A stretch of DNA of 64,000 nt from a virus. Positions 8,185 through 51,717 of this stretch are shown here, piece by piece. Numbering within the stretch: the first letter of the stretch is position 1; each line of letters opens with the position of its first letter. A program made the position numbers and the translations under genes. The stretch covers positions 27,985 to 91,984 of IMG/VR virus record IMGVR_UViG_3300032223_002784; one strand, written 5' to 3'. The notes below the pieces were generated by a model, which was not told the origin of the DNA, did no database searches, and saw only the letters and a list, made by a program, of their open reading frames with translations.

Positions 8185-8218
8185 TTTGTTTCCTCCTTTC
8201 TTATTATACCATTATAGC

Positions 8219-9124
8219 TTACTTTGAGTCAACTAAGACTTCTCTGTTTTCAAAGTCTAACCCCGCAAAAAGGCCATATTCAGATAAAGACCTTTCCTCG
8301 CCTAAATGTAATTTTCCAACTTTTTTAAAGACAAAAGTATCTATAATTTCTTTTTTAGAGATTACATCAATTTCTGCAAATTGATCTTGAAAATCAGACC
8401 ATATTAACCTTCTCATATTTTTAGGCGGGTTTGTGTGGTCAAAGTATAAATGCGACATAAATTGTTTTGTTGGAACCACTGGGGTAAATCCGTTAGTATA
8501 TGCCCTTGCTGCAATAAAAATTTCTTCTCCATAAAAAGCTATGTCTGTATTGGGTGTTATAAATGGCCCAACTGTAAAAACAGAGCCACCTGAGATTGAT
8601 CTTGAAAAAATGTTGTCTTTTGGGTTTGGCATAGCTGTTTGTGTTGGTATCATTATATCTTTAAACTGTTGTACATTTTCATGAAAACTAATTTCTGAAA
8701 CTGAATTTCCACGATCTTCGTCTATTGAGAAATCATCATTATACCAATAGTTTTTTGGATAATTAGTTATTAATGGTTTTTTAATTCCCATAGACTGATA
8801 TTCTTGTGTAAGATTAACTAAATATTCATCCCATCCATCTATAAATCTGCTATGTGAATCTATTTGAAAATAATAATCTTCTCCGTTATAAAAACTATGA
8901 GCTATTGATCTTCCAACTCCCAGCCCTATATTCTCTGGAGCCTTGCTTACTTTATACTTTACACATTCTAGTTCTGGTATAGTAATTTCTTGTTTTTCAA
9001 AATAACAAAGATGTACTCCAAAATTAATTTGATATTTTCCAGAACTTTTATTTATAGCATCCCTGATAGTTCTAGGTAACTCAAAATCATGATATGCAGC
9101 TAATTGAATAAATATACTTTTCAT
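8219..9124 (-). CDS. GT60-like polypeptide/hydroxyproline alpha-GlcNAc-transferase family glycosyltransferase
   Basis: IFIQLAAYHDFEL..TI, YYFQIDSHSRF..GWD (DSH motif) and FYGEEI match recalled motifs of the Gnt1/OGNT family. Confidence 0.75.
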   Translation of the reverse strand: MKSIFIQLAAYHDFELPRTIRDAINKSSGKYQINFGVHLCYFEKQEITIPELECVKYKVSKAPENIGLGVGRSIAHSFYNGEDYYFQIDSHSRFIDGWDEYLVNLTQEYQSMGIKKPLITNYPKNYWYNDDFSIDEDRGNSVSEISFHENVQQFKDIMIPTQTAMPNPKDNIFSRSISGGSVFTVGPFITPNTDIAFYGEEIFIAARAYTNGFTPVVPTKQFMSHLYFDHTNPPKNMRRLIWSDFQDQFAEIDVISKKEIIDTFVFKKVGKLHLGEERSLSEYGLFAGLDFENREVLVDSK

Positions 9125-10101
9125 AAATTTTCTCCGTATGGTTGCTCTTTATTATACTTTATTTGTGGTATTCCAGCAAATACTTCTGGCAAAGGTTCGT
9201 TGTTAAATGTGGGTTTTTTAAATAATTCTGGGTTTTCTTCACCCATTTTTTTTCTTTTTAAATAAAGATTAATACAGTATGCTGCTGCTGAGTTGCCTGC
9301 CTGATATTCTAGGTTATTATATGACCCGTATCTTGCTTGAAACTTAGAGTATATAAAATCGTGATGATAACAATGAAAATGATAATAGTTTTTGTAATAA
9401 TCTAACCAGTCAGATCCAGAATCAATGGTATCAATTACCTTAACATTTTTTTCTTTATATACAGAAGACAAGATTATTTCTGCTGCGTACAATGAACATA
9501 CGCCAGTGCTTAAGCCTATTGTTCCTCTAAAAAAGGATTTGCCCCATTCACCATCATCATGCCATCCATAATATATATTTTTACAAAGATCATCTGATAA
9601 CCTCATAATTTCTATTAAATTTTCTTTTGAACAAATTATTGTTGGACCCATATCGCTTATTCTTTTATACTCTGGATAACCAAACATTCTGGCTGCAACA
9701 TAATAGTCTTTTATTTGATTTTCATTTGTCGTATAGTTCCCTCTTCCAATATATATATCATGTTTATTAAATGGAAATTCATTCATTTTTGAAGTAAATA
9801 AAACATCTGTATCTGTTTTACAAACATAGTCATATTCTTCAAGATATTCTGGTTTATCATATGGAAAAACTAAAGATTTAGCAAAACTATAATCTTTATA
9901 ATATTTTTTTTCTGGAACAATATATTTAAATACTTTAACATTTGTGTATAAATCTATATAATCCGCTACATCTGGATGAGCATAAATTATAAAAGTAAAT
10001 CTTTCATCTAAATCCTGACCGCTAAAAGTCATTAGATTGCATTCGTCTATAAATTTATTATTCCAAAATTCATCAACATATGCTGTTATTGCAATTTTCA
10101 T
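9121..10101 (-). CDS. Putative GT-A fold glycosyltransferase
   Basis: YDYVCKTDTDVLFT (DxD) and a late HFHCYH; start at MKIAITAY through an ATGA overlap. Confidence 0.55.
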   Translation of the reverse strand: MKIAITAYVDEFWNNKFIDECNLMTFSGQDLDERFTFIIYAHPDVADYIDLYTNVKVFKYIVPEKKYYKDYSFAKSLVFPYDKPEYLEEYDYVCKTDTDVLFTSKMNEFPFNKHDIYIGRGNYTTNENQIKDYYVAARMFGYPEYKRISDMGPTIICSKENLIEIMRLSDDLCKNIYYGWHDDGEWGKSFFRGTIGLSTGVCSLYAAEIILSSVYKEKNVKVIDTIDSGSDWLDYYKNYYHFHCYHHDFIYSKFQARYGSYNNLEYQAGNSAAAYCINLYLKRKKMGEENPELFKKPTFNNEPLPEVFAGIPQIKYNKEQPYGENL

Positions 10102-10193
10102 TTTAACCCCAAATTGCTGATGCACAAGTTGCATAAACCATTTGGATCTATTTGCGCCATACTTATTGGAAAAAAGTATTTATTATTATTCAT
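10098..10193 (-). pseudogene. 31-aa remnant resembling the N-terminus of a radical SAM protein
   Basis: MNNNKYFFPISMAQIDPNGLCNLCISNLGLK*; breaks off where CxxxCxxC would be. Confidence 0.35.
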
Positions 10194-10277
10194 TTTATTG
10201 AATCACTGGTCCTTGTCTGTTAATGTATATTTGTAGTGTTGTGTAAAAATCTTATATGAATGAAGAATCATTATTTA

Positions 10278-13200
10278 TTATCCTACAGCTCCAACATATG
10301 CTGAAGCACCTGCACTATTTTTTGCACGTACATAAATTCTTACCCATTTATAGCTTCCAGTAGTTTGTGTACCCGCTAAAGAAAGTCCAGCTGTTGTGCC
10401 TGGTGAAGTTGGTGTTGCGTTTGTATAAACATTAGAAAATGGACCTGCCTGTAACATTCCGCATTGTACATAAAAGTCATATCCCGTAGCTGCACTATGT
10501 GTTGAATCAACTGTTGGTGCTGACCAACTTGCACTAAATGGTAAAGTTACTCCCGATGCTGCTGAACTGGCTGTCAAATTATTTACCGTATTTGGTATAG
10601 TGATAGGTGCTGCAGTAGTAGTTGTAGTTGGTGCTGCAGTAGTAGTTGTAGTAGTTGTAGTAGTGGTTGTAGTAGTTGGTGCTGCAGTAGTAGTTGTAGT
10701 GGTTGTAGTAGTAGTTGTAGTAGTGGTGGTTGCACTAGTAGTAGCACCACCTAAACTTACCCAGGATCCATTTCCATTATAATTAACTCCTCTAACCCAG
10801 TAGTATCTTGTTGTTGCAGCTGCTAAGGAGTCAACATATGAGCTTGCCGTATCTAGTGCTGTGTAGGTTGCAGCTGTTGAAGAAATTGGTGCAGAGTTAA
10901 TTGAAGATGAATAAATATCATATCTAGCAGCTGTAGCTGGGGAAGTATTATGAATATTGTTTTTAATGGTAGACCAATAGTTATATGTAGAATCATTATA
11001 TTGGGTCCATGAAGGTGTAAGAGTAGTTGTACCTATTGTTACTCCTTTGGATGTTGGTGATTGTGGAGCACCAGGATAGAACCAGTTTGCCGTTGTTCCT
11101 GTTTGACCACTAACATTTGAATATGTTGTTGTGCTGTTTTGCCCTGTACCATTTGGACCACTCCATCCAGTTGCTACCATATAATAATATCCAGCTTCTG
11201 GTATATCGTATAACTTATTTAACGATGTATCTATTGTTCCAGAATCATATAATAAATAAGTGTTTACATTTCCATATGAAGAAACCCCGCCACCATTTGT
11301 AGCTCTATATATTGAGACTACAATACTAGAAGCATTTGTTGATGAAACAGATATGTATCCTTGTGTACCAGAAACTCCTGAAGAGCCCTGAATAACTACA
11401 AATGTAGGTGCTGATGGAATAACAGAATATGTTGCATTAAATGACCCTAGGCCTCCTGCTGCTGTTGCATAGCTTGGAGTAATTGCTGTTGTTGTTGGCA
11501 GAGTTCCTAAATTTGTATTAGTTCCAGTTCCATCTGTTGTTGAATATGCAGTTACATTGTTTAATGTAAATGTTCCTCCATTTGCAGTCATATCTAATGT
11601 AAAGGTTGTACCTGTTTGAGAAGCACTTGTAAATGTTCCATTTCCAGAAGTGGCTCCAGATATTGTATAATTTACTTTATAGCTTCCAGCATTTGTTGCT
11701 GATGCCCAGCTTACTCCCGCCACCTTGTTAGCTCCAACTGCAGTTATAGTGGCATAAAAAGTTCCAGAATTAGTTATGGGCCAGTAATCATCATATGTTC
11801 CATTCCCTTGGCCTAATGACGTAGATGTAGATAAAAAATCAGTTGCTGTATGACCCGTAGATATATATGGGGATAAAACTGTATAGTTTCCATTGCTAAA
11901 ACTTGTTCCATAAATAGTTTCTGTATATGAAGATGTATTAGATGGCTTTGAACCAACAACCCAATCCAACATAACAGCATTTATATAAGTTGATCCAGTT
12001 CCTTGAACTATTGTTGGTGTACTTGGAGTTGTTGGTGCAGTACTTGCATTGTACACATTATTAATTGTAAATGCACCCACAGGTGCAACAGGAACTGCTG
12101 TCTGATTTAGTTGTGAACCAGAATACGATAGTCCTGTAGCATATTTATATTTTGGAGTAACATAAACAGTATATGTTGATCCATTCGTTAATCCCGTTGG
12201 CGAAACAGATGTTAGGGTTGAATCTGTAAGTGGATATCCAGTTAGTGATGTTCCTAAGTTATTTCTAACATCTATGTCATAAACATTTGCAGTGGTGGAA
12301 GACCATCCTTGAGTAAATGTACCTGATCCTTGAGTTTGAGTTCCCCACGATATTGTTGGAAAATCTTGTCCAGTAGGTACTATCCCACCTGAGAATGCTG
12401 CACTTCCAGGAACCCCCTGCATTGATGAGCCTGTATATGGATACATATCTGTTGTTGTAGTATAAGAACTTCCTGGTGATGCTGTAAAGACATAAGCGGT
12501 ATTAGCACTTGTATTCACATAATTTGTAATGTTTGGCAAATAAACAGACACGCCTGCGCCACTTATATAATAATATCCATAGATGTTAACAGAAAGAGTA
12601 TTTGTTCCTGTTGTATAATAAGTCCATGTATTTCCAGATGTGAAACTTTTTATTACTATATTACTAATATTTCCTGGTGGCCCTGGCGTAATAGCTGATC
12701 CCATATATATCCATCCAGAGTACCCAAGAACGGGATCATTATTTCTTCCTCGTACCCAATAATAATAAGTAGTATTTCCAGTAAGTGGCACCACTGTATC
12801 AGTAAATGTATTGTTTGTCGTATAAGATCCAATTGGAAGAGTTCCAGTAGCGGTAACACTTGAAGATGGTGTTGTAGCTGATGAAGAACCATAATATTCA
12901 AGAGTATTATTATTACTTTGAAATGTTACGTTATCTCCTAAATAGCTACTTTGAGCTACTAATTTCCAGTTTGACGGAATATAACTTAAAGTTATTCCTA
13001 GGGAAGTTGTAGCTGCAACTGATTGTGATGAAGTTCCTATTGGCACTCCAGGATAAAATATATTTGTGTTATATATTGTAGAATAATCGCTTGTAGTTCC
13101 ATGAGAATTAGTAGCCGTTACATACATATAATAATATCCATAACTTGGTATACTATAAATTAATGTCCCAGTGCTTGATGTGGCTGTATCATATGTTGTC

Positions 13201-15041
13201 TGTGTTGCCCAGCTACTACTACCTGATCTATATATAGTCGCAGTCATAGATGTTGCGCCTGTTGCGGTAGCTTTTATATAACCATTATTACCAATAAGTC
13301 CACTTAAGCCTTGGCTATATGTAAATTGCAATGTTCCAGGTGCGGGTGTAGAGTTATATGGTCCATATGAGGCACTTCTTATTCCTACCCCCGCTGCGTT
13401 ATAAGCGATAACACTATAATAATATGAGCCAGCTGGCAATCCCGTATAATTAATTGCACTATTATTTGTTGTTTTTGTTGTTCCTATGTTAGTCCAGGGA
13501 CCGCTAGAAGCAGAAGAATAAGATAATTGATAATATGAAGAAGAATAAAGACTTCCCCAAGTTACGTCTGCAGCTTGATCTGCTGTCCAGGTCATAACAG
13601 TAATTGATTGTTGCTCTGGTAAATCATACATTAATTGAGGAATATTATAATAAAAATCGGAATATGCCCCACTTGTTCCATTTTCTGCTATTGTTTCGCT
13701 TGTAATATATTTACCACCACTTGTTACTCCTCCCGCTCCTGTTGCAGTTGTATATTGATATGCTGGAAGAATAAATGAGTGATTTTGGTTTTGAGATGTA
13801 TCAAGCCCACCTGCAGAATAAAATATTCCAGGTACGGGGACATATGTTGTATAAACTTTTCCAGATGAGTTTGTGATATACCCTCCCGTTCCATTTGTTG
13901 TCACCGTTGAAGAATTCAGCCAATATGGAAGCCACGACACTGCATATGTACCGCTTGGTGCTGGAGTCCAAGTTCCTGTATTAATATTTACTGTTCCCCC
14001 AGCAGTGAAAGATATTGCAGAATTTGTTTTAGCAGAATCATAAATATAACCTACTGGCGAACTTGCCGTCATTGTTGGAGCAGTTACAACTACTGGAGGA
14101 GAACTCATCAAACTTGTTGATCCAAAAGCAATTACTGGTGATCCAGAATAATCTGTACCGCTATTATATTCTGTTTCAATAACATAAAAATAATTATTCA
14201 AATCTGTAGTTGTATTTGTTGTATATGTTGATATTAATTGCATATTTGTTGCATTCCATCCCTGAGATATTCCTATCCCAGAAGTTATTGGAGTAGCATT
14301 TGACACTATGCTTGCAGCATCAGTATATAGAGTTGTACTTTTATACCATTTAACTGTTCCCCTTGATGCATCTGTTGCATATGGTTCGGTATTATCCCAG
14401 TTAGCGGTCCATGTTATTGTTGCCCCAGGCTTTAAGGTTCCAGTAGAGTATGTAAACCCATAATTAGTATTTGAAGGAGATTGAGAAACAACCCATACTT
14501 TATACCAACCTGTTGATTGTAAATCAACCCCTGGAATATTTTGTGTATTATTATCAGTTATTTCAAAATCTAAATACTGCCCAGCCCATTGTGAGTTAAT
14601 GGTAAGTCCATTATAATTTTTTGTTCTTAAATCAACTTTTACAGCTGAAGAATACGTTCCAGATAACGGTGATCCTGTTGTGTAATCTGTTGGAATAGTT
14701 AAAGTTCCACCCGTTGAAGTGCTATTTAATAAAACACGATATGCATAGCTTGTGCCCGTAAAACCAGTATTGTCCCATGTACCATTTAATCCATAAAGTA
14801 TATTGCCAGCGGTGGTGAGTCTTACATAAGTATTTACATATACGGGTGATCCAGTAGTGCTAGTTGAAAACCAGGGGGAAACTGTTGTATACGGACCTAC
14901 TTTTGGCCAAAATTGTTTCCAAACTCCTACTGCAGTTTTTATATATAATCTTTTTGCAGGAGACCATGTACTTACTGCTGTTTTAATAAAGAATTTTTTA
15001 GTTGTTGTCCATGTATTTGTTGCTGTTTTAAAATATAACAT
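10278..15041 (-). CDS. Large virion protein with FN3/Ig-like repeats and a mucin-like Thr tract
   Basis: 1587 aa, S/T/G/Y-rich; FN3-like YYYWVRG and YYYSVIAYN motifs; poly-Thr before a terminal FN3-like domain. Confidence 0.75.
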   Translation of the reverse strand: MLYFKTATNTWTTTKKFFIKTAVSTWSPAKRLYIKTAVGVWKQFWPKVGPYTTVSPWFSTSTTGSPVYVNTYVRLTTAGNILYGLNGTWDNTGFTGTSYAYRVLLNSTSTGGTLTIPTDYTTGSPLSGTYSSAVKVDLRTKNYNGLTINSQWAGQYLDFEITDNNTQNIPGVDLQSTGWYKVWVVSQSPSNTNYGFTYSTGTLKPGATITWTANWDNTEPYATDASRGTVKWYKSTTLYTDAASIVSNATPITSGIGISQGWNATNMQLISTYTTNTTTDLNNYFYVIETEYNSGTDYSGSPVIAFGSTSLMSSPPVVVTAPTMTASSPVGYIYDSAKTNSAISFTAGGTVNINTGTWTPAPSGTYAVSWLPYWLNSSTVTTNGTGGYITNSSGKVYTTYVPVPGIFYSAGGLDTSQNQNHSFILPAYQYTTATGAGGVTSGGKYITSETIAENGTSGAYSDFYYNIPQLMYDLPEQQSITVMTWTADQAADVTWGSLYSSSYYQLSYSSASSGPWTNIGTTKTTNNSAINYTGLPAGSYYYSVIAYNAAGVGIRSASYGPYNSTPAPGTLQFTYSQGLSGLIGNNGYIKATATGATSMTATIYRSGSSSWATQTTYDTATSSTGTLIYSIPSYGYYYMYVTATNSHGTTSDYSTIYNTNIFYPGVPIGTSSQSVAATTSLGITLSYIPSNWKLVAQSSYLGDNVTFQSNNNTLEYYGSSSATTPSSSVTATGTLPIGSYTTNNTFTDTVVPLTGNTTYYYWVRGRNNDPVLGYSGWIYMGSAITPGPPGNISNIVIKSFTSGNTWTYYTTGTNTLSVNIYGYYYISGAGVSVYLPNITNYVNTSANTAYVFTASPGSSYTTTTDMYPYTGSSMQGVPGSAAFSGGIVPTGQDFPTISWGTQTQGSGTFTQGWSSTTANVYDIDVRNNLGTSLTGYPLTDSTLTSVSPTGLTNGSTYTVYVTPKYKYATGLSYSGSQLNQTAVPVAPVGAFTINNVYNASTAPTTPSTPTIVQGTGSTYINAVMLDWVVGSKPSNTSSYTETIYGTSFSNGNYTVLSPYISTGHTATDFLSTSTSLGQGNGTYDDYWPITNSGTFYATITAVGANKVAGVSWASATNAGSYKVNYTISGATSGNGTFTSASQTGTTFTLDMTANGGTFTLNNVTAYSTTDGTGTNTNLGTLPTTTAITPSYATAAGGLGSFNATYSVIPSAPTFVVIQGSSGVSGTQGYISVSSTNASSIVVSIYRATNGGGVSSYGNVNTYLLYDSGTIDTSLNKLYDIPEAGYYYMVATGWSGPNGTGQNSTTTYSNVSGQTGTTANWFYPGAPQSPTSKGVTIGTTTLTPSWTQYNDSTYNYWSTIKNNIHNTSPATAARYDIYSSSINSAPISSTAATYTALDTASSYVDSLAAATTRYYWVRGVNYNGNGSWVSLGGATTSATTTTTTTTTTTTTTTAAPTTTTTTTTTTTTTAAPTTTTTAAPITIPNTVNNLTASSAASGVTLPFSASWSAPTVDSTHSAATGYDFYVQCGMLQAGPFSNVYTNATPTSPGTTAGLSLAGTQTTGSYKWVRIYVRAKNSAGASAYVGAVG
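10605..10730 (-). repeat. Imperfect trinucleotide repeat encoding T15-AAP-T13-AAP-T5-AAP
   Basis: (agt/tgt/ggt)n runs separated by Pro-Ala-Ala codons on the + strand. Confidence 0.95.
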
Positions 15042-18000
15042 TTAGTATGATACCCACAAATCTCCTACGTACCCGCTTGAAGCTTGTGGGGTTGTTGCTG
15101 CTGGTGCATTATATATTGCATATCCACGAATTATATCTCCTGCTGTAATTCCTGCTGAAGTAACGGTGTTAGGAGCAACCATTATTGTTCTCAAGAAATT
15201 AGCATTGGTTGTCAGGGTTGAGCTTCCTGCAGCACCATCGCTTGTACCAGATTGTGAAATATCTCCATACACGCTAAGGCCATTGATTGATAATCCATTA
15301 GTTCCAAGTTTTACATACTGTGTCCCTGCATTAAAGTACTGTGTTCCGTTATTATAATAATAATATGTATTTGATGGCACGAGGGTTTGCATAACAATTC
15401 CAGTTGATGCAAAAGATTGAAAAACATTTGAGTTTGCCTGCATATAAATTCCACTTGAATTCATAGCTTGATAAACTCCTGTTGCTGCTTGCATATACAC
15501 GCTATTTGTGGTTGCTCCTGTTGGCGAACCTGTGGGTAAAGTTGGTCCAAATAAACTTATAAATGTATTTGTACTGGCACTTAGATTAATTGTACCATTA
15601 GAGAATGTAGCCCACGAACCATATGTTGTTGATGGTGTGTATGTTGTTGGATTGGTTGAAGTATATATTAATATTCCAGCAGTTGTTGGAAAGTTTGTTG
15701 ATCCCGCTTTATCAATTATCATTCCAACTGCAGGTCCACCAGAAAGTTGTAGTCCTGTTGTTGTTGCACTAATAAATGGGCTGCTTGATCCAGTGCTAAA
15801 GTAATCCCATGCACCAGTATACATACCAATTCCATTAACTCTTGTGCCATATGAATCTTTAAATCCGCCACCGCTTGCTGATGTTCCCATTGCAAGAAAT
15901 GGTGTGCCCGTAGGTGCTGTTGAATCAGTAAGAGAAGGGGACGATCCTCCCCAAGGTTGTGTACTAGTAGCTGCTGGTGCGGTTAAATAAACATTGTTAT
16001 TTCTTGTTATTAAATATGCAGTTCCAGCAACATCACCTAAAGATATCCAGTCTTTAGCTGCATCAATTGTTATAATATTTTTTGTGCTTGCTGTTCCAGC
16101 TGTTGAAACTGTAATAGCACCAGTTATATCTGCTCCTCTTGCATAAAGTTTTCCACCTAATGTGACTCTAAAAGCATTTGTTGTTGAATCACCTGCTGCA
16201 CCACCTGTTCCCGCCCAAAATACGTTAGTGCCAGTTGTTGTGGCTGCACCATATATACCAGCAGAATATCCAGCTACGCTTCCATTTGATACAGATATTG
16301 TTCCTGCAGACGAGTCTAGGGCTATATTTCCATTTCCACCAGAGGATATGCTGGCTATTTTACTTGCATTAATTGTCCATCCGCCTAGATATGCAGCAGT
16401 ACTATAAAGATTATATAGCGTTCCATCTGGGGCGGTAGATGGCGTTGTAAGTAATTGTGTTGAGGTAGAGCCAGATGTCCAAGCATATAGTCCGCTAGGA
16501 TTAAATATTAATCCTGGAGTGCCTGATGCTGGCAATGTTCCAGATGTTTGTGGAGAATATAATGAACCTCCAGATATCAATACGTTTCCAGTAAAAGATC
16601 CACCAGTTGCATTTATTGGGCCAGATAGGTATGCACTTGATGCATACAGCGTTCCATCAGTTCCAATATGTGCTCCAGATGCTGGTCTAAAGATAATTAC
16701 TGTTGATGTTGGAATATTAGCTGATACGCTTGCACTTAAAACAACTGTTGTGGATGTTACAGAGCTTACAGTGGTTCCTGCTGGCAATAATGGAATTCCC
16801 GCTGCAGTATATGCATAAACAACCATACCTGCAACTGGTGAAACTGACGCTCCATTAATTGTAGTTGCTGTAGTAGTAAATGTAAGTGTGGTTCCAGATG
16901 CAGTTGCTGCTGATGTTGTAAGCTTTAATGGCTGTACTATAGATCCAACATCTAATGTTCCACCTGTAATAATTGCATTGTTGGCATATAGCGTACCTGA
17001 AGGTGTCACTGCAAATTTAGTATTATCTCCACCTGATGCTGTTGATCCTGCCCATATAGAATATGATGCTGCTGCAAGCGAATTAATTCCAACGTATGAA
17101 CCCGCTGATCCAAGGTTTTGAATAGAATTTGTTCCAACTATCCAGTTACCAATTCTTGCATCAGTTGTGGTAAATGTTCCAGTCCCAGTAGTTACATTTC
17201 CTAGAATCTGTGTGGTTGGATTTCCAGATGAATCGTATGCAGAAATATTATTTGATTGAATTGTAACTCTTCCACCACTATTTGTTAACATGGCGGTTCC
17301 ACTATTTGCATAAGTATATGTATTTAATCCAGTTGATGCTACAGAGAATGATGTTGTTGAAGGTGCTGGGGTAGCAAGAATGGTTCCTGATGTTACATTA
17401 AATACTGAAGGATAAACTCCAACTACTGTAACTGATTGACCCGCTACAAATGTTGAAGCAGCTGCTGGAGATATAGTATATGTTGTATATGTTGTTGTAG
17501 CCACTACATTAGAAATTGTATAGCTTGTAGCAGCAATAATAGAACCAGTTGAAGAAATTAATAACGGTCCATTAAATGAACCTCTACTTGCATTAACTTG
17601 TCCCGATATATTGAGTGCATTTTGATCCCATACAACTTGATTTCCTGAAGCTCCTACTGAAAAATATCCATTTGAATACCATTGGTTGTAGTTATTAATA
17701 TACATTCCATCAAGCGACCCCGCTGCTGTTCCACTTACTGGAATATTTATAGGGTTTACGCCTTTACCAATTTTCATGGTTCCACTATTAACAGTCATTG
17801 CTCCAGCGAAATTACCTGCTGTAGCATTAATGGTTCCTGTTGCAGTCAAAGCATTTGTTGATGGGTCAAATTTAAATTGATCATTTAATGAAAAGTATCC
17901 AGCAGTGTCAATATAGAATGGAGTTCCATTGTTAAACCAAACGCCAGTACCTGAATAAAGTCTATTTACTGGTTGTGCAGTTTGTATATTGCTATATGTT

Positions 18001-21000
18001 CCTGATCCATCAATATATATTGCATAAGGGCTTGTTGAGCCAACTCTGAATGATTTTGTATTTAATATTGTTGCGTCAACTTGACTTGCAGTTACTGCAC
18101 CCGCTTGAATTTGATTTGCAGCAATAGTATTTGCAGCGACATCTCCATTGGATACTTGTAATGTAGATCCACTTGCTTGTGGGCTTGCTGCTGCTGCACC
18201 ATTAAAGTCTTTAGCAACGACCTTAGTATAATAAACTTGCGGAGTAGTTCCAGATGAGAAATATACAAGCTGTGTCGTAGCTGCTCCATATGTGGCACCT
18301 GGTAAAGCTTTAATAAGTGCAAAGGTTGACGATGTTTGAATTGCAAGAGTTGTGCTATATGCCATCGCTGTTGCATACTGACCAATAATAGATCCTGTAG
18401 CACCAATGTTATTTGATACAGCAAACGTAGTAGATGTAGGTGCTGGCGAGGCTAAAACAGTTGCATTTGAAATTCCAAACGTTGGCGATATACCAGATAA
18501 AGAAATTGTTTGTCCAGCAATAAATGTATGAGTAGCAGAGGTTGTATAAATAATATTTGCTCCTGATACTTGTGCACCTGTCACTATTGCAGTATTTCTA
18601 TCTGGAGTAAAATTATTTGTAGTTGATATATGTACTTCATATGTAACTGGATCTGGATTAGAAACAAGAGGCCAAGCTACCTGTAGTGCACCAAACATGG
18701 GTGTAATTGTTGGTGACACTGTTAAGCCATTTGAAGCAACCCCATCATTACTTCCACCCAAAGCATTTAGAGTTACTGTTACTGGATTAGTTGGAATACT
18801 TTCAACATTATAGATATCTTTTGTATATACTGCAACGCCATAAGAGGTTGATGCTACTAAGCCAGAAATAGCAAAAGTTGTTCCTGGGGTATATTGCTCA
18901 AAAAGTAATGGATAAAAAGTAATGGTATTTCCAGTTACGGCAGCTGTATTTTTTACATTTAATGTAACTACGCTTGTTCCAGCATTAATAGCGGTTATTT
19001 CTGCTCCCGTGCCAATACCAGTACCAGATACTGCCATGCCAACAGATAGCCCCGTTGTATTTGCAAAAGTTATAGTAAATGTATTTATTGCTCCCGCTGT
19101 TGCAGTCTTTGTAATAATGTTTGTATTATCAAACAATAATACTCCATATGTACTGATTGTAGTAGTAGGTGAAGCAAGAGACATATCGTTCCATGATGCT
19201 AAAGCTGAGTATGATTTTGCTGATACAGAAAGGCCAGTAGGTGTTGCTACAGTTTGTGTTGTTGTAGATGAAGTTAGGGTTGTACTATTTACGCCAACAT
19301 TATTATACTGATCATATGCCTGTGCAATAAAATCATAAGATGTTCCAGGTGTGAGATTGGGTATGGAATAGTTTGTTGTAGATGTTCCACTTACAAAATT
19401 TACAGATGGAATATTTATCATAGTCATATTTGCCTGCAAGGTACCTGTTGTACCATAACTCAAGAAATATCCTTTAGTTGATGTAGCAGTAGTTTGAAGT
19501 TGAATTGTTATGCTATTTAATGCTTGTGCGGTACTTGCTATAGAAGGCGGGTTTGGTGCTGTAGTAATAATAACCGCTGGATTTGAAGGAGTTACTGAAA
19601 CAACATTTGAAGATAAAGATTCATATCCAAATGCATCCACATACCTTACAATAACATTTCTTGGTGCATAGAATATTGAAGGAATAGTTGCTGGTCCACC
19701 ACCAGTATATACAATTGAAGTAAATGTATATGTTCCTGATGCAGTTGTAGTTAAATTAGATGCAACAACAGAACTTGTAGAAGTGTTATATGTTGATAAA
19801 GTAAGTTGATATGTTCCTGCACTCAACAATGTTATTGCTGAAACAAATGTATTTGCTGGAACTCCCGCTCCAGTAATCAAATATCCTGGATAATTTCTAA
19901 AGTCTGCGATGGCAGTTATTCCATTGTCATCTAGCACGTTGTTTACCGTAAGAAGATTTTGACTTGCAACGTTTGATCCACCAGTTGCTGTAGCTACTGA
20001 TCCAGTCATATAGTCTGGGAAGTCATTTGTTAAGGCATAAGTTGTGTATGCAGTATATGACTCATATATTTCTCCAGCAATAGCGTACGGCGTTGTTGTA
20101 AAATCAAAAGTAGAAATATATCCATTTGTGATTGGAACAACTCGTGCTACTGGAATTGTAGTAATCAATGGATTTAATCTTGTTGCAATTGATATTGCCG
20201 TTCCTGTGCTTGATACATCAACAGAAGAATAACTATTTAATGTTCCAGTATATGCTGTACTTATGTTTGAAGCTCCAAATTGCCCCGTTAAATCTGATAA
20301 AGAAATTACTTGTGTTTGATTAACCCCAATTACGTTTCCAGTGACACCTGTTGCTGTTCCCACTGTTGTGGTAGTAGCATTCAATACTTTAAATCCACCC
20401 GTAACTAAAGAAGTGATACTATAGGTTCCATTATATCCAGATGGTGTCGCACCTGAAATAGTTACACTTGATCCAACTGATACTGTTGAGGATGTATAGT
20501 ATGTTGCATATGTTCCATCTCCAGACATTCCAGTGATGGTTATTGAAGATGTTGTTGGATAAAAATAAAACTTTCCCGTCGCTCCATTTGCTGAGTTTAA
20601 TGTTGTAACATATCTAACTCCTGCATTTGATGTTGGTAATGTGAAAGGTATATATATATTATTTAAAGAATTTGCTGCTGGTAGGAAACTAATTGTTCCT
20701 GAAACCGCCGAATAATTAGCTACCGTTAACGGCACCGTAGTTGAGCCAGGTGTATAAGAACTTGCTACTAGGGCTGCACTACCGATACCAGTTCCAAATA
20801 CTGACATTCCCGCAACAATATTTGTTGCACTTCCAACTGTTATTGAAGTTGCAGAAATTGATCCCGATGCAGTTGTTGATGTAACTCCGCCCCACGTAGG
20901 TGTTCCAACTACTACATCGCTTGGCTGTGTGGTATTGACATATCCGAGTGTCTGTGGTGTTGCTGGTTTTCCTGGTGTAGAAAAAGTAGTATAGACTCCT

Positions 21001-21983
21001 CCAGAAGAAGAAAACCTGGCGTAGACATATCTTTGATTATAGTTTGGGCTTGTTATATTTGCTGGATTAATTTTAGAAAAATAAGTTCTTACTGCTACCC
21101 CAGGCCATGCCGTTGTTGTTCCACCAACAGTATAGCTTGCTGGCGTATATCCATCTGCAGCATATGTTATTGTTGGGGCTGAGCCAGATGTAGATTCAAT
21201 TTCCCAAATATCAATAGCATCAAATGCACCTTTTGCCATTTCTGATGTATTTGTAACTGTTGCTACATATCCATTAATTGCATTTACCACATTTATTGTT
21301 GGTGGATTAAGATTAAGTACATAAGTTGGTACGCTGGTTGCACATACTGTAGCACTTACGTTATTAAGTACATCTGCTACAGACACACAAATTGCAGTAA
21401 GTTGTGGTGTAAAAATATTGAAAAGATAAGTGTTTATTGCTTTTGTTACATATATTACTTGAGATGTTGTTCCTGCAGCTATTGGGTATCCAGTATACCT
21501 ATTTGTTACTGCAGAAGATCCAGTTCCCGCCGTTAATGACACTATAAATTGAGACATTGTTGTGTTTGTAGATAAAGTTGGATCCCAAGTAAATGATATC
21601 TGTAAATCATCTCCAGAGCCTGCTGTCCAAACCCCAGCAACATAAGTTCCCCAAGCTGCTACAACATTTGTTGGATCAGTTGGAACAATTACTGTTGGTC
21701 CACTACCCCCTGGATATACTACTGGCGGTTGATTATTTATTGGAGGAATAACAAAAGAATCTGGATTTCCTGGCAATTTTGTTACAAGAGAAGCATCTGA
21801 ACGAGATGTTAAATTAGCCATATTGATTGGTCTTCCAGTACCATCAACAATTACAACTTCTGCACCTTGTCTTGCTAAGGTCTGAGCATACTTACCATTT
21901 TTTAGGCGTGGGTCATTAACATCAATGAAGACTGTTTGTCTTTTACCAACCGTATTAGGAGATTGGTAATTGTTTTTTGCCAT
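15042..21983 (-). CDS. Giant tail fibre / host-specificity-like protein with FN3 and beta-rich repeats
   Basis: 2313 aa downstream of the tail-tip genes; FN3 motifs; IAANQIQAGAVTA spike-type repeats. Confidence 0.75.
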   Translation of the reverse strand: MAKNNYQSPNTVGKRQTVFIDVNDPRLKNGKYAQTLARQGAEVVIVDGTGRPINMANLTSRSDASLVTKLPGNPDSFVIPPINNQPPVVYPGGSGPTVIVPTDPTNVVAAWGTYVAGVWTAGSGDDLQISFTWDPTLSTNTTMSQFIVSLTAGTGSSAVTNRYTGYPIAAGTTSQVIYVTKAINTYLFNIFTPQLTAICVSVADVLNNVSATVCATSVPTYVLNLNPPTINVVNAINGYVATVTNTSEMAKGAFDAIDIWEIESTSGSAPTITYAADGYTPASYTVGGTTTAWPGVAVRTYFSKINPANITSPNYNQRYVYARFSSSGGVYTTFSTPGKPATPQTLGYVNTTQPSDVVVGTPTWGGVTSTTASGSISATSITVGSATNIVAGMSVFGTGIGSAALVASSYTPGSTTVPLTVANYSAVSGTISFLPAANSLNNIYIPFTLPTSNAGVRYVTTLNSANGATGKFYFYPTTSSITITGMSGDGTYATYYTSSTVSVGSSVTISGATPSGYNGTYSITSLVTGGFKVLNATTTTVGTATGVTGNVIGVNQTQVISLSDLTGQFGASNISTAYTGTLNSYSSVDVSSTGTAISIATRLNPLITTIPVARVVPITNGYISTFDFTTTPYAIAGEIYESYTAYTTYALTNDFPDYMTGSVATATGGSNVASQNLLTVNNVLDDNGITAIADFRNYPGYLITGAGVPANTFVSAITLLSAGTYQLTLSTYNTSTSSVVASNLTTTASGTYTFTSIVYTGGGPATIPSIFYAPRNVIVRYVDAFGYESLSSNVVSVTPSNPAVIITTAPNPPSIASTAQALNSITIQLQTTATSTKGYFLSYGTTGTLQANMTMINIPSVNFVSGTSTTNYSIPNLTPGTSYDFIAQAYDQYNNVGVNSTTLTSSTTTQTVATPTGLSVSAKSYSALASWNDMSLASPTTTISTYGVLLFDNTNIITKTATAGAINTFTITFANTTGLSVGMAVSGTGIGTGAEITAINAGTSVVTLNVKNTAAVTGNTITFYPLLFEQYTPGTTFAISGLVASTSYGVAVYTKDIYNVESIPTNPVTVTLNALGGSNDGVASNGLTVSPTITPMFGALQVAWPLVSNPDPVTYEVHISTTNNFTPDRNTAIVTGAQVSGANIIYTTSATHTFIAGQTISLSGISPTFGISNATVLASPAPTSTTFAVSNNIGATGSIIGQYATAMAYSTTLAIQTSSTFALIKALPGATYGAATTQLVYFSSGTTPQVYYTKVVAKDFNGAAAASPQASGSTLQVSNGDVAANTIAANQIQAGAVTASQVDATILNTKSFRVGSTSPYAIYIDGSGTYSNIQTAQPVNRLYSGTGVWFNNGTPFYIDTAGYFSLNDQFKFDPSTNALTATGTINATAGNFAGAMTVNSGTMKIGKGVNPINIPVSGTAAGSLDGMYINNYNQWYSNGYFSVGASGNQVVWDQNALNISGQVNASRGSFNGPLLISSTGSIIAATSYTISNVVATTTYTTYTISPAAASTFVAGQSVTVVGVYPSVFNVTSGTILATPAPSTTSFSVASTGLNTYTYANSGTAMLTNSGGRVTIQSNNISAYDSSGNPTTQILGNVTTGTGTFTTTDARIGNWIVGTNSIQNLGSAGSYVGINSLAAASYSIWAGSTASGGDNTKFAVTPSGTLYANNAIITGGTLDVGSIVQPLKLTTSAATASGTTLTFTTTATTINGASVSPVAGMVVYAYTAAGIPLLPAGTTVSSVTSTTVVLSASVSANIPTSTVIIFRPASGAHIGTDGTLYASSAYLSGPINATGGSFTGNVLISGGSLYSPQTSGTLPASGTPGLIFNPSGLYAWTSGSTSTQLLTTPSTAPDGTLYNLYSTAAYLGGWTINASKIASISSGGNGNIALDSSAGTISVSNGSVAGYSAGIYGAATTTGTNVFWAGTGGAAGDSTTNAFRVTLGGKLYARGADITGAITVSTAGTASTKNIITIDAAKDWISLGDVAGTAYLITRNNNVYLTAPAATSTQPWGGSSPSLTDSTAPTGTPFLAMGTSASGGGFKDSYGTRVNGIGMYTGAWDYFSTGSSSPFISATTTGLQLSGGPAVGMIIDKAGSTNFPTTAGILIYTSTNPTTYTPSTTYGSWATFSNGTINLSASTNTFISLFGPTLPTGSPTGATTNSVYMQAATGVYQAMNSSGIYMQANSNVFQSFASTGIVMQTLVPSNTYYYYNNGTQYFNAGTQYVKLGTNGLSINGLSVYGDISQSGTSDGAAGSSTLTTNANFLRTIMVAPNTVTSAGITAGDIIRGYAIYNAPAATTPQASSGYVGDLWVSY

Positions 21984-22553: not shown

Positions 22554-25500
22554 TTATAGTGCTGTGCCTTTGCCAAGCATATTTAATACTAGGGTGGTTT
22601 TGAATCCTTGATCAAATGAATGAGAAACAGAATGAACAAAGTATGTTTGAGCATTAATTCTAGATAGGCTATATGTCAAAGTTATTACATCTCCCACCTG
22701 TATAAGTGGGTTTCCAAATATAGTTAATGAAGTATCTTTTGAGAACCCGTCAAATCCCTGGGCAATTACTTTTAACATTTTATTTGCAGAATCAGGGGAC
22801 TGTATCCATTGAGAATCTACTTGTGCAACTTCAGATGCATTTGCTGGATCAGTAATTTTTTCAAGCAAAACGGGATCTGATGGAGCTATAATTTCATGTG
22901 TCCAAAGATTAAGATTAATGTTAAAGGAATTTGTTGCATCTGATTGTTTGCTTAAATAAACCATGTGTGATGAGTTATTAACAATTGCCATCTTTGCCCT
23001 AAATCCAGTATTTATAGGTGTTGAGTAGGAAAGAGAATATTCATCAACATTTTGTTTTTGATAGTAAGATTGGTCAGTAGGTTGTGTGCCTGGGAAATAA
23101 TACCATAGATATTCAATTGGTAATACATCTACGGAAACTGCTGCTGGGGTAGTATATTGAACATCATATACATTTATTCCAACAACCTCTGGGGTTGTTT
23201 GCATCATGTAATTACTATACTTTGAATATAAATTTTGTCCTTGAATCAATCCATTTAAAAATTCTCTATCTTGATACCAGTAACTTACACTTCTTTCTCT
23301 TAATGGCTTTGTTGATGCATAAATTTCTCTTAAATTAGCAGAATTTGTTGAAGAACTAATTGTTGATGGATATGTTATACTAGTAATTGGGACTGGCAGA
23401 GTTGATGTGTAGAATCCAAACTTTGTTCCAACTGTGTTTATTGTAGATCCAGCATTAATATTTACTTTCTTTCTTAGCCCAGTCAACGTATTTTTTGCTG
23501 TTGTGCTCCACCCATATGCAATGTCAGAATTTGATAATGTTGCAGCTGTTTGCCATCCTGTAATTTCAGTATTATTTAAAAATACTTGTATAAGCTCTCC
23601 GTTATCTTCTCCCAGATTTGCATCTGTTCCATCTGAATAAAAATGAGCAACCTTTAATTTAAAAGCTTGATCTGTGGCTGCACGATATGAATAGTTGCTA
23701 GCTGCTCCAGAACCTGGCACTTTAACTAAAACTTTTTCAAAATTATTGATAATAGAGTTTACTGTTCCAGTTACTTCTGTCCATGCAATTACGGTTGGAG
23801 TTGTACTAACAACTTTATATATAGCCATGATATATCTATATATTGGTGTTGTGTATAGTTGGCCAGTTTTTGGATCTAATTGATTATACTTAATAAGTTC
23901 TACAAAATATGCTCCAGATGGACTTGATCCAGTCAAATTAAAAAATAAACCAGAGGCAGATACTGCAATATCTGGGAGATCAAATTTAACTGAGTATGTT
24001 TTGTATCCAGGATCTGTAACTGATGTTGGGTAAACCAAGCTTTTTGTTGAAGCTGGAGCGGTAAGTGCTATTTTATTCACGCTTGGGTTTTTTGGATCAG
24101 AGGTTGTGCTATTAATAATTGAAGTTGTTGAGGTTCCCGTTGTCATAGCATAAGACGAGCTTATTGTTGCTTCGGACAAACTCTTGCTTGCAATATTTGT
24201 TGCAACCCTTGTATGTGCTGAAGGAACCGTGCCAAAAAGGCCTCTTTGAACATTTGTAATGTATCCTGTCGGGGAAATAATAACATTGTAATCAGTTGCT
24301 GATGTTGGCATCCCATTAGAATCCAGAGAAGACACCGTAAGTCCTATTTGATTGTTCTTGATGTATCTATTAATTTCAGAAGATAATTCAATGTCACTTT
24401 TAACTGATACGGTAGATGAACCTACGGTATATTCTTTATAAACAAAAGATACAAGTTCATTTTCTATGACTGCATAACCATTATTATTCAATGTAAACGT
24501 ATGGAATATATCAAGAAGATCATTTGTATTTAATTGAAATTTATTTGCAGTCTGTGACATATCAGAAGCAAGGTAATTAAATCCAACAGAATCTAGAGTG
24601 GTCTGTTGCCATACAACATCGTTAGATGTAGTATAAATAAATGAAGGCGATTGTGCCACATTTGGATTTGTTGCATTTTGTAAAGCCAGGGATTGCTTAA
24701 TTTTTGGAGTTTGATATTTCAAAGCTATTTTTCCAGGTTTTGCTTTATTGCTTACAGAATATCCACCTTCAATTACACTTGAATCATTTATTGTAAGCTG
24801 AGATGTGCTATTGGATAAAACATCAGCCAAGCTTTTGAAGTTCATAACCCCATACTCATCAATCCAAGCACCTATTTGATAGGCTAGGAATATGTCTGCC
24901 AATGTGTCTACAATTGTAGAATCTCTACTATTGCAATAGAAATAGGCTAAATCTAATGGCATGGTCTTGCTATTACAGATCTTATACAAAGAGTCATAAT
25001 CATAATCTGTGAATCCCGCCAAATCTAAGATGTTGGTTATTACCTCAAATACTGGTTTTAGATTAGATACATAATCTGGCACTGGAGTTGTTTGAAGATA
25101 TCTGGTGACATCAAAACATTGGATCTTAACATCTTTAATGTCTGTCTCATCCCAAGTATCTGAGTAGAATACTCCTCCTGGGATATATGTTCCCGTTGGA
25201 GAGTTTACTTGAATAAAAGCTTTTGTTGTTGAGTCAAAATAAGACTTAAGCCTAAAATTAATATAAAATTTAATATTTTTTCTTAACATGTTTGACAAAA
25301 TATTTGTTGATAAATTACTTTGGCTGGCAAAAATAGGAATGAATGTTGTACTTGTTACAATAGGAATTGCAGTTAAATTAAGAGTTGCATCATTTGCATT
25401 GATTGAGGAAATTGGAACAAAGTTGTTTTTGCTGTCTAATGACTTACTGATATCAAGAGTTTTAACAAACTTGGTTAAATCAATTTCAAGTCTTGGAGAA

Positions 25501-26717
25501 ATTTCTACTACCTGCATTCTTGATGCATCTGAGGTAAAATTTGTATTTGAAGAGGTAAATGATGAATTTGTAGTTTTGCTGATTTGAGTAATAGTTATTT
25601 TTTTAAAAGATGTGTAAGGTGAGACTAGACCCGCATTAGTAATGGCTGGCATCGTAGACCATTTTGTTTTAGTCCATGCAGTGCCTGTCCAATAGAGCAC
25701 GAGCACTCCAGTAGTAAAAGAATCTGAATTGGCTGGAGGTGTTATTGAGGTACTTCCATCAACCGTAAGTATTGTTCCATCAAGATAGATATTTATGGTT
25801 GGAACAGTTATTAATGTATTAAATTTTATGACAAGCTTGTTTGAATTAATATTTTGTGAATATAGACCCGTAATGCTTAAAGATGAAGAATCTGAAACAA
25901 AATATTTGTATGGAGCCATATCATTTGCCAATGCATTTTTAAATACAGGGACTGGTGGGGATGCCATAGTAAAGCTTGGAGTTTGAATAATTGGACTTAC
26001 TGGAGAATATGTTGTAGGCTGACTGGTGAGTACAGAGCTTGTTACTTTTCTGAATGCTGTTGGAAATGTAGCATTAATATTTCCAGATCCAACATATGAT
26101 TCTCCTGGGCGGAAAAATGTGAATGGGCTTTCTGTAGGCCAAAGGGGGTTGTGTTGATAATCAAAATATGTAGTCTTGTATATTTCAGGCGTAGTATAAT
26201 AAATTGTTTTATTAGAGCCTTGATCAGAACTTAATGTGTTTACCTGCAATGTAAATGTAATTGATGTAATATTATCTGAAGTTCCAGATGAACCAATATA
26301 TGTAACAATTTTAGTCCAACCTAGGGAATTGATTTCTGCTGAAGATGAACCAAATTGAGTTGATGAACCACCTTGAGCAAATGCACTTAACATTACTGGA
26401 GTTGCATCACTTGTTTTCATATATGTTACTATCTTATATGCATTTCCAGCACTTACTGTTGTATTAGATGTATATACTACAGATCCTGTATTGCTTGTTA
26501 ATGCAAAGCTATTTGTTGTAAATCCCGCATAAGCATTAGCTCCTGTTATTCCCGCCACAATAGTGCTTGAGGTTGATACAGTTTCTGCTACACCAGTTCC
26601 TGCTACTGTAAGATATGGTGGATTAAATAAGTTTTGATTCCATTCGGCTGAAACAACTGGTTGCAATTCAATTGAACTGGAGTTCAAAAAGATATTTGAA
26701 GATACATTACTAAGCAT
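22554..26717 (-). CDS. Minor tail / tail-tip hub protein
   Basis: Second gene after TMP; GNPLIQVGDVITL C-terminal hub-like motif. Confidence 0.75.
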   Translation of the reverse strand: MLSNVSSNIFLNSSSIELQPVVSAEWNQNLFNPPYLTVAGTGVAETVSTSSTIVAGITGANAYAGFTTNSFALTSNTGSVVYTSNTTVSAGNAYKIVTYMKTSDATPVMLSAFAQGGSSTQFGSSSAEINSLGWTKIVTYIGSSGTSDNITSITFTLQVNTLSSDQGSNKTIYYTTPEIYKTTYFDYQHNPLWPTESPFTFFRPGESYVGSGNINATFPTAFRKVTSSVLTSQPTTYSPVSPIIQTPSFTMASPPVPVFKNALANDMAPYKYFVSDSSSLSITGLYSQNINSNKLVIKFNTLITVPTINIYLDGTILTVDGSTSITPPANSDSFTTGVLVLYWTGTAWTKTKWSTMPAITNAGLVSPYTSFKKITITQISKTTNSSFTSSNTNFTSDASRMQVVEISPRLEIDLTKFVKTLDISKSLDSKNNFVPISSINANDATLNLTAIPIVTSTTFIPIFASQSNLSTNILSNMLRKNIKFYINFRLKSYFDSTTKAFIQVNSPTGTYIPGGVFYSDTWDETDIKDVKIQCFDVTRYLQTTPVPDYVSNLKPVFEVITNILDLAGFTDYDYDSLYKICNSKTMPLDLAYFYCNSRDSTIVDTLADIFLAYQIGAWIDEYGVMNFKSLADVLSNSTSQLTINDSSVIEGGYSVSNKAKPGKIALKYQTPKIKQSLALQNATNPNVAQSPSFIYTTSNDVVWQQTTLDSVGFNYLASDMSQTANKFQLNTNDLLDIFHTFTLNNNGYAVIENELVSFVYKEYTVGSSTVSVKSDIELSSEINRYIKNNQIGLTVSSLDSNGMPTSATDYNVIISPTGYITNVQRGLFGTVPSAHTRVATNIASKSLSEATISSSYAMTTGTSTTSIINSTTSDPKNPSVNKIALTAPASTKSLVYPTSVTDPGYKTYSVKFDLPDIAVSASGLFFNLTGSSPSGAYFVELIKYNQLDPKTGQLYTTPIYRYIMAIYKVVSTTPTVIAWTEVTGTVNSIINNFEKVLVKVPGSGAASNYSYRAATDQAFKLKVAHFYSDGTDANLGEDNGELIQVFLNNTEITGWQTAATLSNSDIAYGWSTTAKNTLTGLRKKVNINAGSTINTVGTKFGFYTSTLPVPITSITYPSTISSSTNSANLREIYASTKPLRERSVSYWYQDREFLNGLIQGQNLYSKYSNYMMQTTPEVVGINVYDVQYTTPAAVSVDVLPIEYLWYYFPGTQPTDQSYYQKQNVDEYSLSYSTPINTGFRAKMAIVNNSSHMVYLSKQSDATNSFNINLNLWTHEIIAPSDPVLLEKITDPANASEVAQVDSQWIQSPDSANKMLKVIAQGFDGFSKDTSLTIFGNPLIQVGDVITLTYSLSRINAQTYFVHSVSHSFDQGFKTTLVLNMLGKGTAL

Positions 26718-27235
26718 TAGATCTCCGTAAATTCTATTTTGAGATCAACATAGTCATAACCTAAGTTTACTGCACCCGCTCTTCTCTTTTTTATGTTATA
26801 AGTAAATGTTGTCATAAAAGCATTATAAACTTGACCTGGGCTGGAATCAGCATCTACATATGTTGTAGCATCAGGTATTTTTGGATCAACTGTTGGAATT
26901 GTATCTTGAGCAAATATGAGCTTTACGTATACTGGCTGAAAAGCATTTGCCTCATAGAAAGCTTTTATCCATGCTCCGCCCTTGGCTCCATATACACCTT
27001 CTGAAGCACTATAATCAACAAGGTTGCTATCAAGTGTTGGAAGATCTACCCAATCTGCTGATATAACAAATTTCTTAGCAATTATAAACTTTCTTAAAGT
27101 TCCATCAGCCATTCTATCTGTTGACTCTATGAGGTTGTACGAAATATCAATCGGTTGACGATTATGGTCTGTTAGCTTGTACCAAGTTACATTATCTAGG
27201 GAGATCTGAACTCCTTGTGGAATTTGGAATATCAT
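26717..27235 (-). CDS. Distal-tail-like minor tail protein
   Basis: Immediately after TMP; RMADGTLR motif. Confidence 0.7.
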   Translation of the reverse strand: MIFQIPQGVQISLDNVTWYKLTDHNRQPIDISYNLIESTDRMADGTLRKFIIAKKFVISADWVDLPTLDSNLVDYSASEGVYGAKGGAWIKAFYEANAFQPVYVKLIFAQDTIPTVDPKIPDATTYVDADSSPGQVYNAFMTTFTYNIKKRRAGAVNLGYDYVDLKIEFTEI

Positions 27236-50553: not shown

Positions 50554-50556
50554 CTA

Positions 50557-50745: not shown

Positions 50746-50797
50746 TATCCTCCTATTATATCAAAGTAAATAGAAAATGCCTATATTACACAAAACC

Positions 50798-51679: not shown

Positions 51680-51717
51680 TTAATTCCCCCTATATCTTTA
51701 TTTTCCTATTATAGCAT

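Follow-up and report, generated by a model that had tools for sequence, protein, structure and literature searches.

Why would a phage tail protein carry a stalk of threonines just ahead of its terminal domain, and do the two glycosyltransferase (GT) genes behind it encode the enzymes that decorate this stalk? The question is raised by a minus-strand locus in a 64-kb stretch of virus DNA (the window), which comprises bases 27985-91984 of the 91,984-bp IMG/VR record IMGVR_UViG_3300032223_002784 (completeness estimate 86%); coordinates below are those of the window unless a locus is named. Three proteins are concerned: P0003 (10278..15041), a 1587-aa distal tail/fibre protein, product of the final gene of the tail module and the candidate acceptor; P0002 (9121..10101), the candidate glycan-extending enzyme; and P0001 (8219..9124), the candidate initiating enzyme. 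The original prediction was that this phage starts and extends O-glycans on the P0003 stalk. With moderate confidence we come to a similar view, namely that P0001 and P0002 act together in the cytoplasm as a pair of enzymes for mucin-type O-glycosylation of the Thr stalk. The prediction gains support from the GT60 identity of P0001 and from the co-occurrence of GT60 genes with such linkers, and from these we infer the glycosylation itself.

The candidate initiating enzyme

P0001 (301 aa) was predicted to be a GT60 enzyme, and it is a member of PF11397, the Pfam family of GT60, with a polypeptide N-acetylgalactosamine (GalNAc)-transferase-like fold. The match to the PF11397 profile scores 109.3 bits against a cut-off of 21 (E 3.7e-31), with two stretches that span the profile, and a six-frame search of the genome agrees with the assignment. 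The protein also matches PHROG 24687 ('glycosyltransferase') and contains the motifs SIFIQLAAYHD, QIDSHSRFIDGWD, and FYGEE. NCBIfam gave zero matches for either P0001 or P0002. An AlphaFold model of P0001, made with 24 homologues as input, reached a pLDDT of 94.6; the best 29 PDB entries in the fold comparison were all GT27 polypeptide GalNAc-transferases (Z 18.3-21.6), and the next family scored 16.6. Residues 1-300 align with the GalNAc-transferase catalytic domain over 259-262 residues (rmsd ~3.2-3.4, identity 12-17%). A profile built from the GT60 alignment found no match among PDB sequences even at E 10, so P0001 is tied to solved structures by its fold only; no Gnt1 entry was among the fold-comparison matches listed. 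Animal and protist enzymes that initiate mucin glycosylation fall into one superfamily with P0001. GT60 has been described as a GT27-related family without the ricin domain (PMC8724618), which fits a protein of this length.

Three residues, D89 (of D89-S-H91), H91, and H225, are invariant among the 24 homologues. By an alignment offset of 1 to 135 they presumably correspond to positions of about 224, 226, and 360 in GalNAc-T2, and their placement is consistent with the Mn-binding D-x-H...H of that enzyme. Transmembrane segments were found in neither P0001 nor P0002, and both enzymes should therefore act in the cytoplasm. Among the protein-atlas neighbours of P0001 are a viral cluster of 796-aa proteins that combine PF11397 with GT7 beta-4-galactosyltransferase-type domains, and a bacterial cluster that combines PF11397 with methyltransferase domains.

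The second glycosyltransferase and its tie to GT60

P0002 overlaps P0001 by 4 nt and matches PF23741 (DUF7164) at E 7e-19; no match to a named GT family was obtained at the sequence level. It had been proposed as a GT-A-like enzyme with a DxD motif. This motif is present: D102 and KTDTD (106-110) are invariant, the DxD being D108-T-D110. The model (pLDDT 88.5) appears to be of the GT-A type, and its top Foldseek matches were all GT6 enzymes (blood-group A/B or alpha3GalT) at E ~1e-8, with TM scores of only 0.41-0.55. The open reading frame (ORF) extends to 10134. A conserved start, MKIAITAY, lies at 10101 in all homologues and is preceded by a GGGG-type ribosome-binding site, and the ORF annotation is probably 11 codons too long.

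The DUF7164 family keeps close company with GT60. GT60 lies in the flank of 17 of the 23 DUF7164 loci in IMG/VR; of the remaining loci, three run into the end of a contig and two are only remotely related (24-25% identity). The DUF7164 gene is often directly upstream of GT60, as in the window, and in L013 (9131-10915) and L014 (also L223/L224) the two are fused into a 594-aa protein with DUF7164 at the N-terminus and GT60 at the C-terminus. Judged by gene order and fusion, DUF7164 belongs together with GT60.

The candidate acceptor

P0003 carries a triple [FY]-[VI]-K-x5-W motif at its N-terminus, together with FN3-like modules, a Thr stalk, and a small domain as its tip. Translation of 10278-15041 bears out the tract T15-AAP-T13-AAP-T5-AAP at 10605..10730 (minus strand; residues 1438-1479, 42 residues) in a 1587-aa protein; translation likewise bears out that the two GT genes, with the DxD and the other motifs quoted for them, follow directly on the same strand. 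The stalk tethers a C-terminal tip of 108 aa with one Cys (10281..10604, minus strand). The description of P0003 as FN3-rich holds indirectly: its homologues carry FN3 (PF00041) and Flg_new (PF09479) domains, and its own Pfam match is only a weak one to Ig_J_second. Its place in the tail region is supported by the gene order, in which a tape measure gene (27232-32145), a minor tail protein gene (22554-26717), and a gene for a 2313-aa protein (15042-21983) precede P0003, and by collinearity with the Streptomyces phage Blueeyedbeauty.

Thr makes up 19% of P0003, which is rich in Ser and Thr along its whole length, and the chance of a T15 run at a given site is ~1e-11. In the 91,984-bp record all 18 matches to a T6-coding pattern fall inside the stalk (a reversed control pattern gave 1 match), and the stalk is the sole long Thr, Ser, or PT tract within the window. 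Since its codons are a mixture of ACT, ACA, and ACC, it is not a pure microsatellite. At the N-terminus (14900-15041) the three tandem [FY]-[VI]-K-x5-W copies are invariant in the homologues P0180-P0192; this triple motif may be the site of attachment to the tail.

GT60 genes and Thr or PT linkers in related phages

Homologues of P0001 comprised 425 metagenome proteins and at least 395 confirmed IMG/VR stretches, of which 80 loci were examined. The family is almost entirely viral. Where close homologues turn up in cellular genome bins, their contigs are short and probably of phage origin; SAR86 and other bacteria have more distant ones. GT60 had been expected to co-occur with Thr-rich virion proteins, and this is what was found: a Thr-run or PT linker lies upstream on the same strand within 6 kb at 58 of the 62 loci with at least 2.5 kb of upstream flank. 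No linker was found within 6 kb downstream of GT60 (0 of 69 loci), and none on the opposite strand. One locus (L057) has two GT60 copies and no tract, and another (L061) only an (ATT)n-type repeat. Seven GT60 records (55-118 kb; completeness at least 97% for two) contain 136 T6 matches, 133 of which belong to the single gene beside the cassette.

The linkers are spread over more than 40 unrelated carrier families (100-1040 aa). Most carriers have 300-1000 aa, and several match tail-fibre or minor-tail PHROGs. Thr runs of at least four residues are followed by x-A-P, with Pro at +3 from the last Thr, in 301 of 480 cases (63%); the commonest forms are AAP (185), VAP (34), PAP (25), and SAP (22). 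This +3 Pro matches that of the GalNAc-transferase sequon T/S-P-x-P, which is read through a 'proline pocket' (bioRxiv 10.1101/2020.06.25.171371).

Presence and absence on one backbone

The virus is uncultured and actinophage-like. In its portal it shares 54% identity with Streptomyces cluster-BE phages, among them Blueeyedbeauty. The genome of Blueeyedbeauty is collinear with the window, and in it a 2021-aa minor tail protein directly adjoins small ORFs and a metallophosphoesterase. Because this collinear phage lacks them, P0003 and the two GT genes can be regarded as an addition to a conserved backbone.

Relatives of P0003 carry the comparison further. The closest, P0180, keeps the stalk as T11AAP-T9AAP-T9AAP and has an unrelated 102-aa tip in place of the 108-aa tip of P0003; it appears to come from the same assembly as a 98%-identical GT60 and a 94%-identical DUF7164. 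The N-terminal triple motif also occurs in eleven remoter homologues, all of them free of Thr runs. Four loci with a tract-less P0003-type fibre (L202-L205) are collinear with the window through metallophosphoesterase, helicase, and primase, and none of them has a GT60, DUF7164, radical SAM (rSAM), 76-aa protein, or epimerase gene. Comparison of these loci with P0180 indicates that stalk and GTs are present together or absent together, probably as the outcome of one acquisition. Two of these loci (L202:3751-4440 and L203:14643-15263) still encode, downstream of their P0003-type fibre, a 2-oxoglutarate (2OG) oxygenase of the same family as that of the PT-linker clade described below.

A wider cassette in relatives and an rSAM remnant in the window

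The usual gene order in relatives is carrier, 145-aa protein, 76-aa six-Cys protein, rSAM/SPASM enzyme, GT60, and GalE-like epimerase. The epimerase, which could serve the sugar supply, follows GT60 in 36 loci; the genome of the window encodes an epimerase elsewhere. The six-Cys protein (L026:8765-8995 and 53 other loci) has 64-92 aa, a weak match to DUF6171, and the pattern C-x2-C ... C-x2-C-x-C ... C-P-[IL]-[GD]-K-W, and it accompanies GT60 more often than the rSAM enzyme does. In the window, the spacer between P0003 and P0002 (10102..10277, minus strand) holds the remnant of a deleted rSAM/SPASM gene: its first ~13 codons (ISMAQIDPNGLCN) are joined, with the frame shifted, to its last 7 codons (CASAIWG-stop), and the ~950 nt that separate these ends in relatives are gone. 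The two ends are exactly the N- and C-termini of the rSAM enzyme encoded just upstream of GT60 in relatives, a sequence match by which we judge that the window has lost its rSAM gene. A strict tie of rSAM to Cys-rich tips was considered and rejected, as many loci with Cys-rich tips have no rSAM gene. A literature search returned no paper on rSAM/SPASM enzymes with tail fibres.

In a clade of 12 GT60 loci (L065, L070-L074, L076-L078, L081, L055, and L062), (PT)n linkers replace the Thr runs. All 12 add a 199-223-aa 2OG-Fe(II) oxygenase of the prolyl-hydroxylase type (PF13640), encoded between the 76-aa protein and the rSAM gene. Shorter dioxygenase-like genes (153-162 aa) occur in L008, L022, L035, L039, and L040. 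One carrier with Thr runs (in L026) and one with PT repeats (in L077) have a common 245-aa N-terminal anchor, beyond which small Cys-containing modules are separated by the respective linker type.

From this we draw a broader proposal, which we offer tentatively as a possibility and as a whole: the cassette in the window may be a reduced version of a modular cassette that matures tail fibres and is widespread among uncultured phages. In full form it might comprise an rSAM/SPASM enzyme with the six-Cys 76-aa protein, one GT for mucin-type initiation and another for extension, a GalE-like epimerase, and, as an option, a prolyl-hydroxylase-type oxygenase. Its targets might be receptor-binding fibres built like beads on a string, with Cys-rich modules joined by Thr-run or (PT)n linkers, and GT60-like enzymes and the YYAWQ family described below might be interchangeable as initiators. 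Phages would then have built independently, for their adhesins, a eukaryote-like mucin/extensin chemistry together with tailoring in the style of ribosomally synthesized and post-translationally modified peptides (RiPPs).

Thr-AAP linkers and the YYAWQ family

A scan of IMG/VR with a T5-AAP-T5 DNA pattern yielded at least 120 stretches. Among the matches listed, the commonest neighbour of the tract, seen at 28 of 118 loci, is a GT family of ~320 aa with no Pfam match and with the motifs YYAWQVEVM, HDSD, and WCADMW (the YYAWQ family). Its gene usually lies at most 100 nt downstream of the Thr-AAP tract gene, that is, in the same slot as GT60, and in the sets examined the two never occur in one locus. 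It is sometimes found beside, or fused to, the same rSAM family. Homology between the YYAWQ family and GT60 was not detectable by hhalign (E 0.77). Identity of DUF7164 with the YYAWQ family was also considered and rejected, the hhalign match (E 0.05) being confined to the DxD region. In L122 (297-2309, minus strand) a 671-aa frame right after a Thr-tract gene has a YYAWQ-type start and, in clustering, links the YYAWQ family to the rSAM/SPASM proteins; it is probably a GT-rSAM fusion. Taken together, Thr linkers can exist without a dedicated neighbouring GT, and GT60, where present, nearly always adjoins one.

Proposed mechanism and alternatives

The stalk-glycosylation reading that we favour can be put as follows. 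P0001, as a retaining GT-A enzyme of the GT60/GT27 kind, would transfer an N-acetylhexosamine (GalNAc or N-acetylglucosamine, GlcNAc) from a UDP-sugar to Thr hydroxyls, acting on the Tn-x-A-P units while the fibre protein is still cytoplasmic. P0002, the DUF7164 enzyme, whose fold may be GT6-like, would add a further sugar. Densely glycosylated, the 42-residue stalk would be stiff, extended, and resistant to proteases, and would serve as a spacer that presents a small, exchangeable tip.

Several points weigh against this reading. Its support is comparative throughout, and from it we infer what accepts the sugar, which sugar this is, in what order the enzymes act, and what the phage gains. The putative equivalence with the metal ligands of GalNAc-T2 depends on the alignment offset and on the residue numbering of that enzyme. 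The covariation of PT linkers with the oxygenase lies within a single clade; it was therefore rejected as statistical evidence and counts as one event. The adjacency of GT60 and linkers could come in part from a shared spot at the variable end of the tail module. In one GT60 clade (L064, L068, L069, and L082) the gene has a Toprim gene on one side and a sigma-70 region 4-like gene on the other, a replication/regulation context, and no Thr or PT tract is in view on these short contigs. Among the matches listed for the T5-AAP-T5 scan, GT60 is in the flank of only 4 new stretches (at least 118 were compared), in 3 of 24 larger tract records, and in none of the 11 tract records that are at least 90% complete; since Thr-AAP linkers are thus common in phages without GT60, the linker has no need of that enzyme.

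The chief rival builds on some of these observations. In it the Thr stalk is an unmodified flexible linker and a recombination junction, and the GTs have their target elsewhere, be it a protein or envelope glycan of the host or a different product of the phage, their placement marking an accessory-gene spot at the end of the tail module. Apart from the wide spread of Thr-AAP linkers and the replication/regulation clade, it can draw on the roughly three-quarters of tract loci (with at least 3 kb downstream, among the matches listed) that have neither GT60 nor a YYAWQ GT nearby, and on the lower G+C of the GT genes (0.30 against ~0.37), which is often seen in accessory genes. We nevertheless judge it unlikely. 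The fold of P0001 is specifically that of a peptide O-GalNAc transferase, both enzymes are soluble and have no flippase or membrane partner, and tract and GTs have been gained or lost jointly on one backbone. Moreover, linker chemistry (Thr runs or PT) tracks the enzyme set while the carriers differ, and the unrelated YYAWQ family fills the same slot after Thr-tract genes, never together with GT60.

The GTs might instead modify the fibre protein away from the Thr runs, at Ser or Thr of the tip or FN3 modules, or at hydroxyproline in the PT repeats of relatives, the Thr runs being spacers only. Ser and Thr are indeed abundant along the whole of P0003, hydroxyproline is the acceptor of the GT60 member Gnt1 in the Skp1 pathway, and the PT-linker relatives add a prolyl-hydroxylase-type oxygenase. 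To this alternative we give little credence. The 92-kb record has no PF13640 match, so that Thr is the likely acceptor here and hydroxyproline an unlikely one; the linker, and no domain, is conserved across the more than 40 unrelated carriers; close relatives exchange the tip but keep tract and GTs; and a Pro at +3 behind the Thr runs is in keeping with Thr as the acceptor. It is very improbable that the cassette has no part in the virion and makes or modifies a small, glycosylated RiPP-like peptide, whose precursor would be the Cys-rich 76-aa protein or one of the ~100-aa Thr-rich proteins of relatives. The rSAM/SPASM enzyme and the six-Cys protein beside GT60 in relatives would suit such a role, as would the carriers of only ~100 aa; yet this genome has lost the rSAM gene, has no gene for the 76-aa protein, and keeps both GTs together with the tract in a 1587-aa structural protein, and most carriers are far longer (300-1000 aa), some with tail-fibre or minor-tail PHROG matches.

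Relation to known glycosylation systems

The GT60 enzymes of Dictyostelium and Trypanosoma cruzi (polypeptide alpha-GlcNAc-transferases) and Gnt1 share the family PF11397 with P0001, and both sides have a single catalytic domain and no ricin-type lectin domain (PMC8724618). Thr-rich mucin-like repeats are the presumed acceptors, and P0001 is soluble like Gnt1. Unlike the eukaryotic enzymes, P0001 is viral, has ~300 aa and no membrane anchor, and its presumed acceptor is a phage tail protein in the bacterial cytoplasm. Unlike in the Skp1-type pathway, no prolyl hydroxylase is encoded in this genome, although the PT-linker clade with PF13640 echoes, as one evolutionary event, the combination of prolyl hydroxylase and Gnt1 in Skp1 modification. 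The closest solved fold (Z 21.6) is that of the GT27 GalNAc-transferases that initiate animal mucins (e.g., human GalNAc-T2), and the likeness extends to the D-x-H motif with a later invariant His and to acceptor-like repeats with Pro at +3. P0001 differs from GT27 in its low identity (12-17%), the absence of a sequence-level PDB match, and the lack of a lectin domain and a Golgi anchor.

To our knowledge, proof of self-encoded virion glycosylation is limited to a few mycobacteriophages and to their capsid and tube proteins; in the work of Freeman et al. 2023 the modified mycobacteriophage proteins are said to be capsid and tail-tube subunits. Those systems use other GT families, whereas here the candidate acceptor lies inside a distal fibre protein, as a linker. 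No Thr, Ser, or PT tract was found in the capsid (36886-38022) or tube-like (32879-33670) genes of the window. For the mycobacteriophages Che8, Corndog, and Myrna, phage GTs have been proposed or shown to decorate the phages' own structural proteins (PMC12363180). The present system would be a variant form of phage virion glycosylation of a different, apparently much commoner design. In the literature searched, no paper linked GT60 or PF11397 to phage virions.

Another point of comparison is offered by the cellulases and other secreted proteins of actinobacteria, which have O-glycosylated Pro/Thr linkers whose glycans are thought to stiffen them and protect them from proteases. Such linkers, like the P0003 stalk, are rich in Thr, Pro, and Ala, lie between folded modules, and belong to an actinobacterial setting. 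They are modified during secretion by membrane-bound Pmt-type mannosyltransferases, not by soluble cytoplasmic GT-A enzymes.

If stalk glycosylation is correct, the receptor-binding fibres of many environmental phages would bear glycan 'bottle-brush' spacers, with consequences for their reach and protease resistance and for adsorption and antigenicity. As tools, one would have small soluble enzymes that O-glycosylate peptides at a simple Tn-x-A-P acceptor, and the origin of GT60/GT27 enzymes could be examined on a concrete case.

Genome setting

Nearly every gene across 1-57.9 kb of the window lies on the minus strand, and the PHROG-based gene order is of the siphovirus type. A GT4-like gene, ribonucleotide reductase (RNR), fibre-like genes, portal, protease, major capsid, adaptor, and an Ig-domain tube-like protein are followed by the tail genes described above; on the far side of both GT genes the order continues with small ORFs and with genes for a metallophosphoesterase, a DnaB-like helicase, and a primase. 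Against 50,697 sequenced phages, zero matches were obtained for the region by blastn or for P0002 and P0003 by tblastn. The only matches to P0001 in these genomes were in four jumbo Xanthomonas/Stenotrophomonas phages (23-25% identity).

A promoter-like site lies at the end of the GT60 gene (8203..8232, minus strand; 11 of 12 consensus matches, with TG), and no terminator-like site was seen by consensus matching between P0003 and the GT genes. This arrangement suggests that the GTs are co-transcribed with the tail genes; such promoter and terminator calls are consensus matches only, with counts no higher than in shuffled controls.

The GT4 gene at 56938 had been put forward as a further contributor. 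This was rejected, as the gene is a conserved part of the backbone beside RNR in Streptomyces phages that have no such module; Blueeyedbeauty has the same GT-then-RNR order, and the gene is therefore probably unrelated to the system. Between RNR and portal (48928-53857, minus strand) there are three more fibre-like genes, none with a Thr tract; their PHROG matches are to tail-fibre/hyaluronidase N-termini and head-decoration Ig domains.

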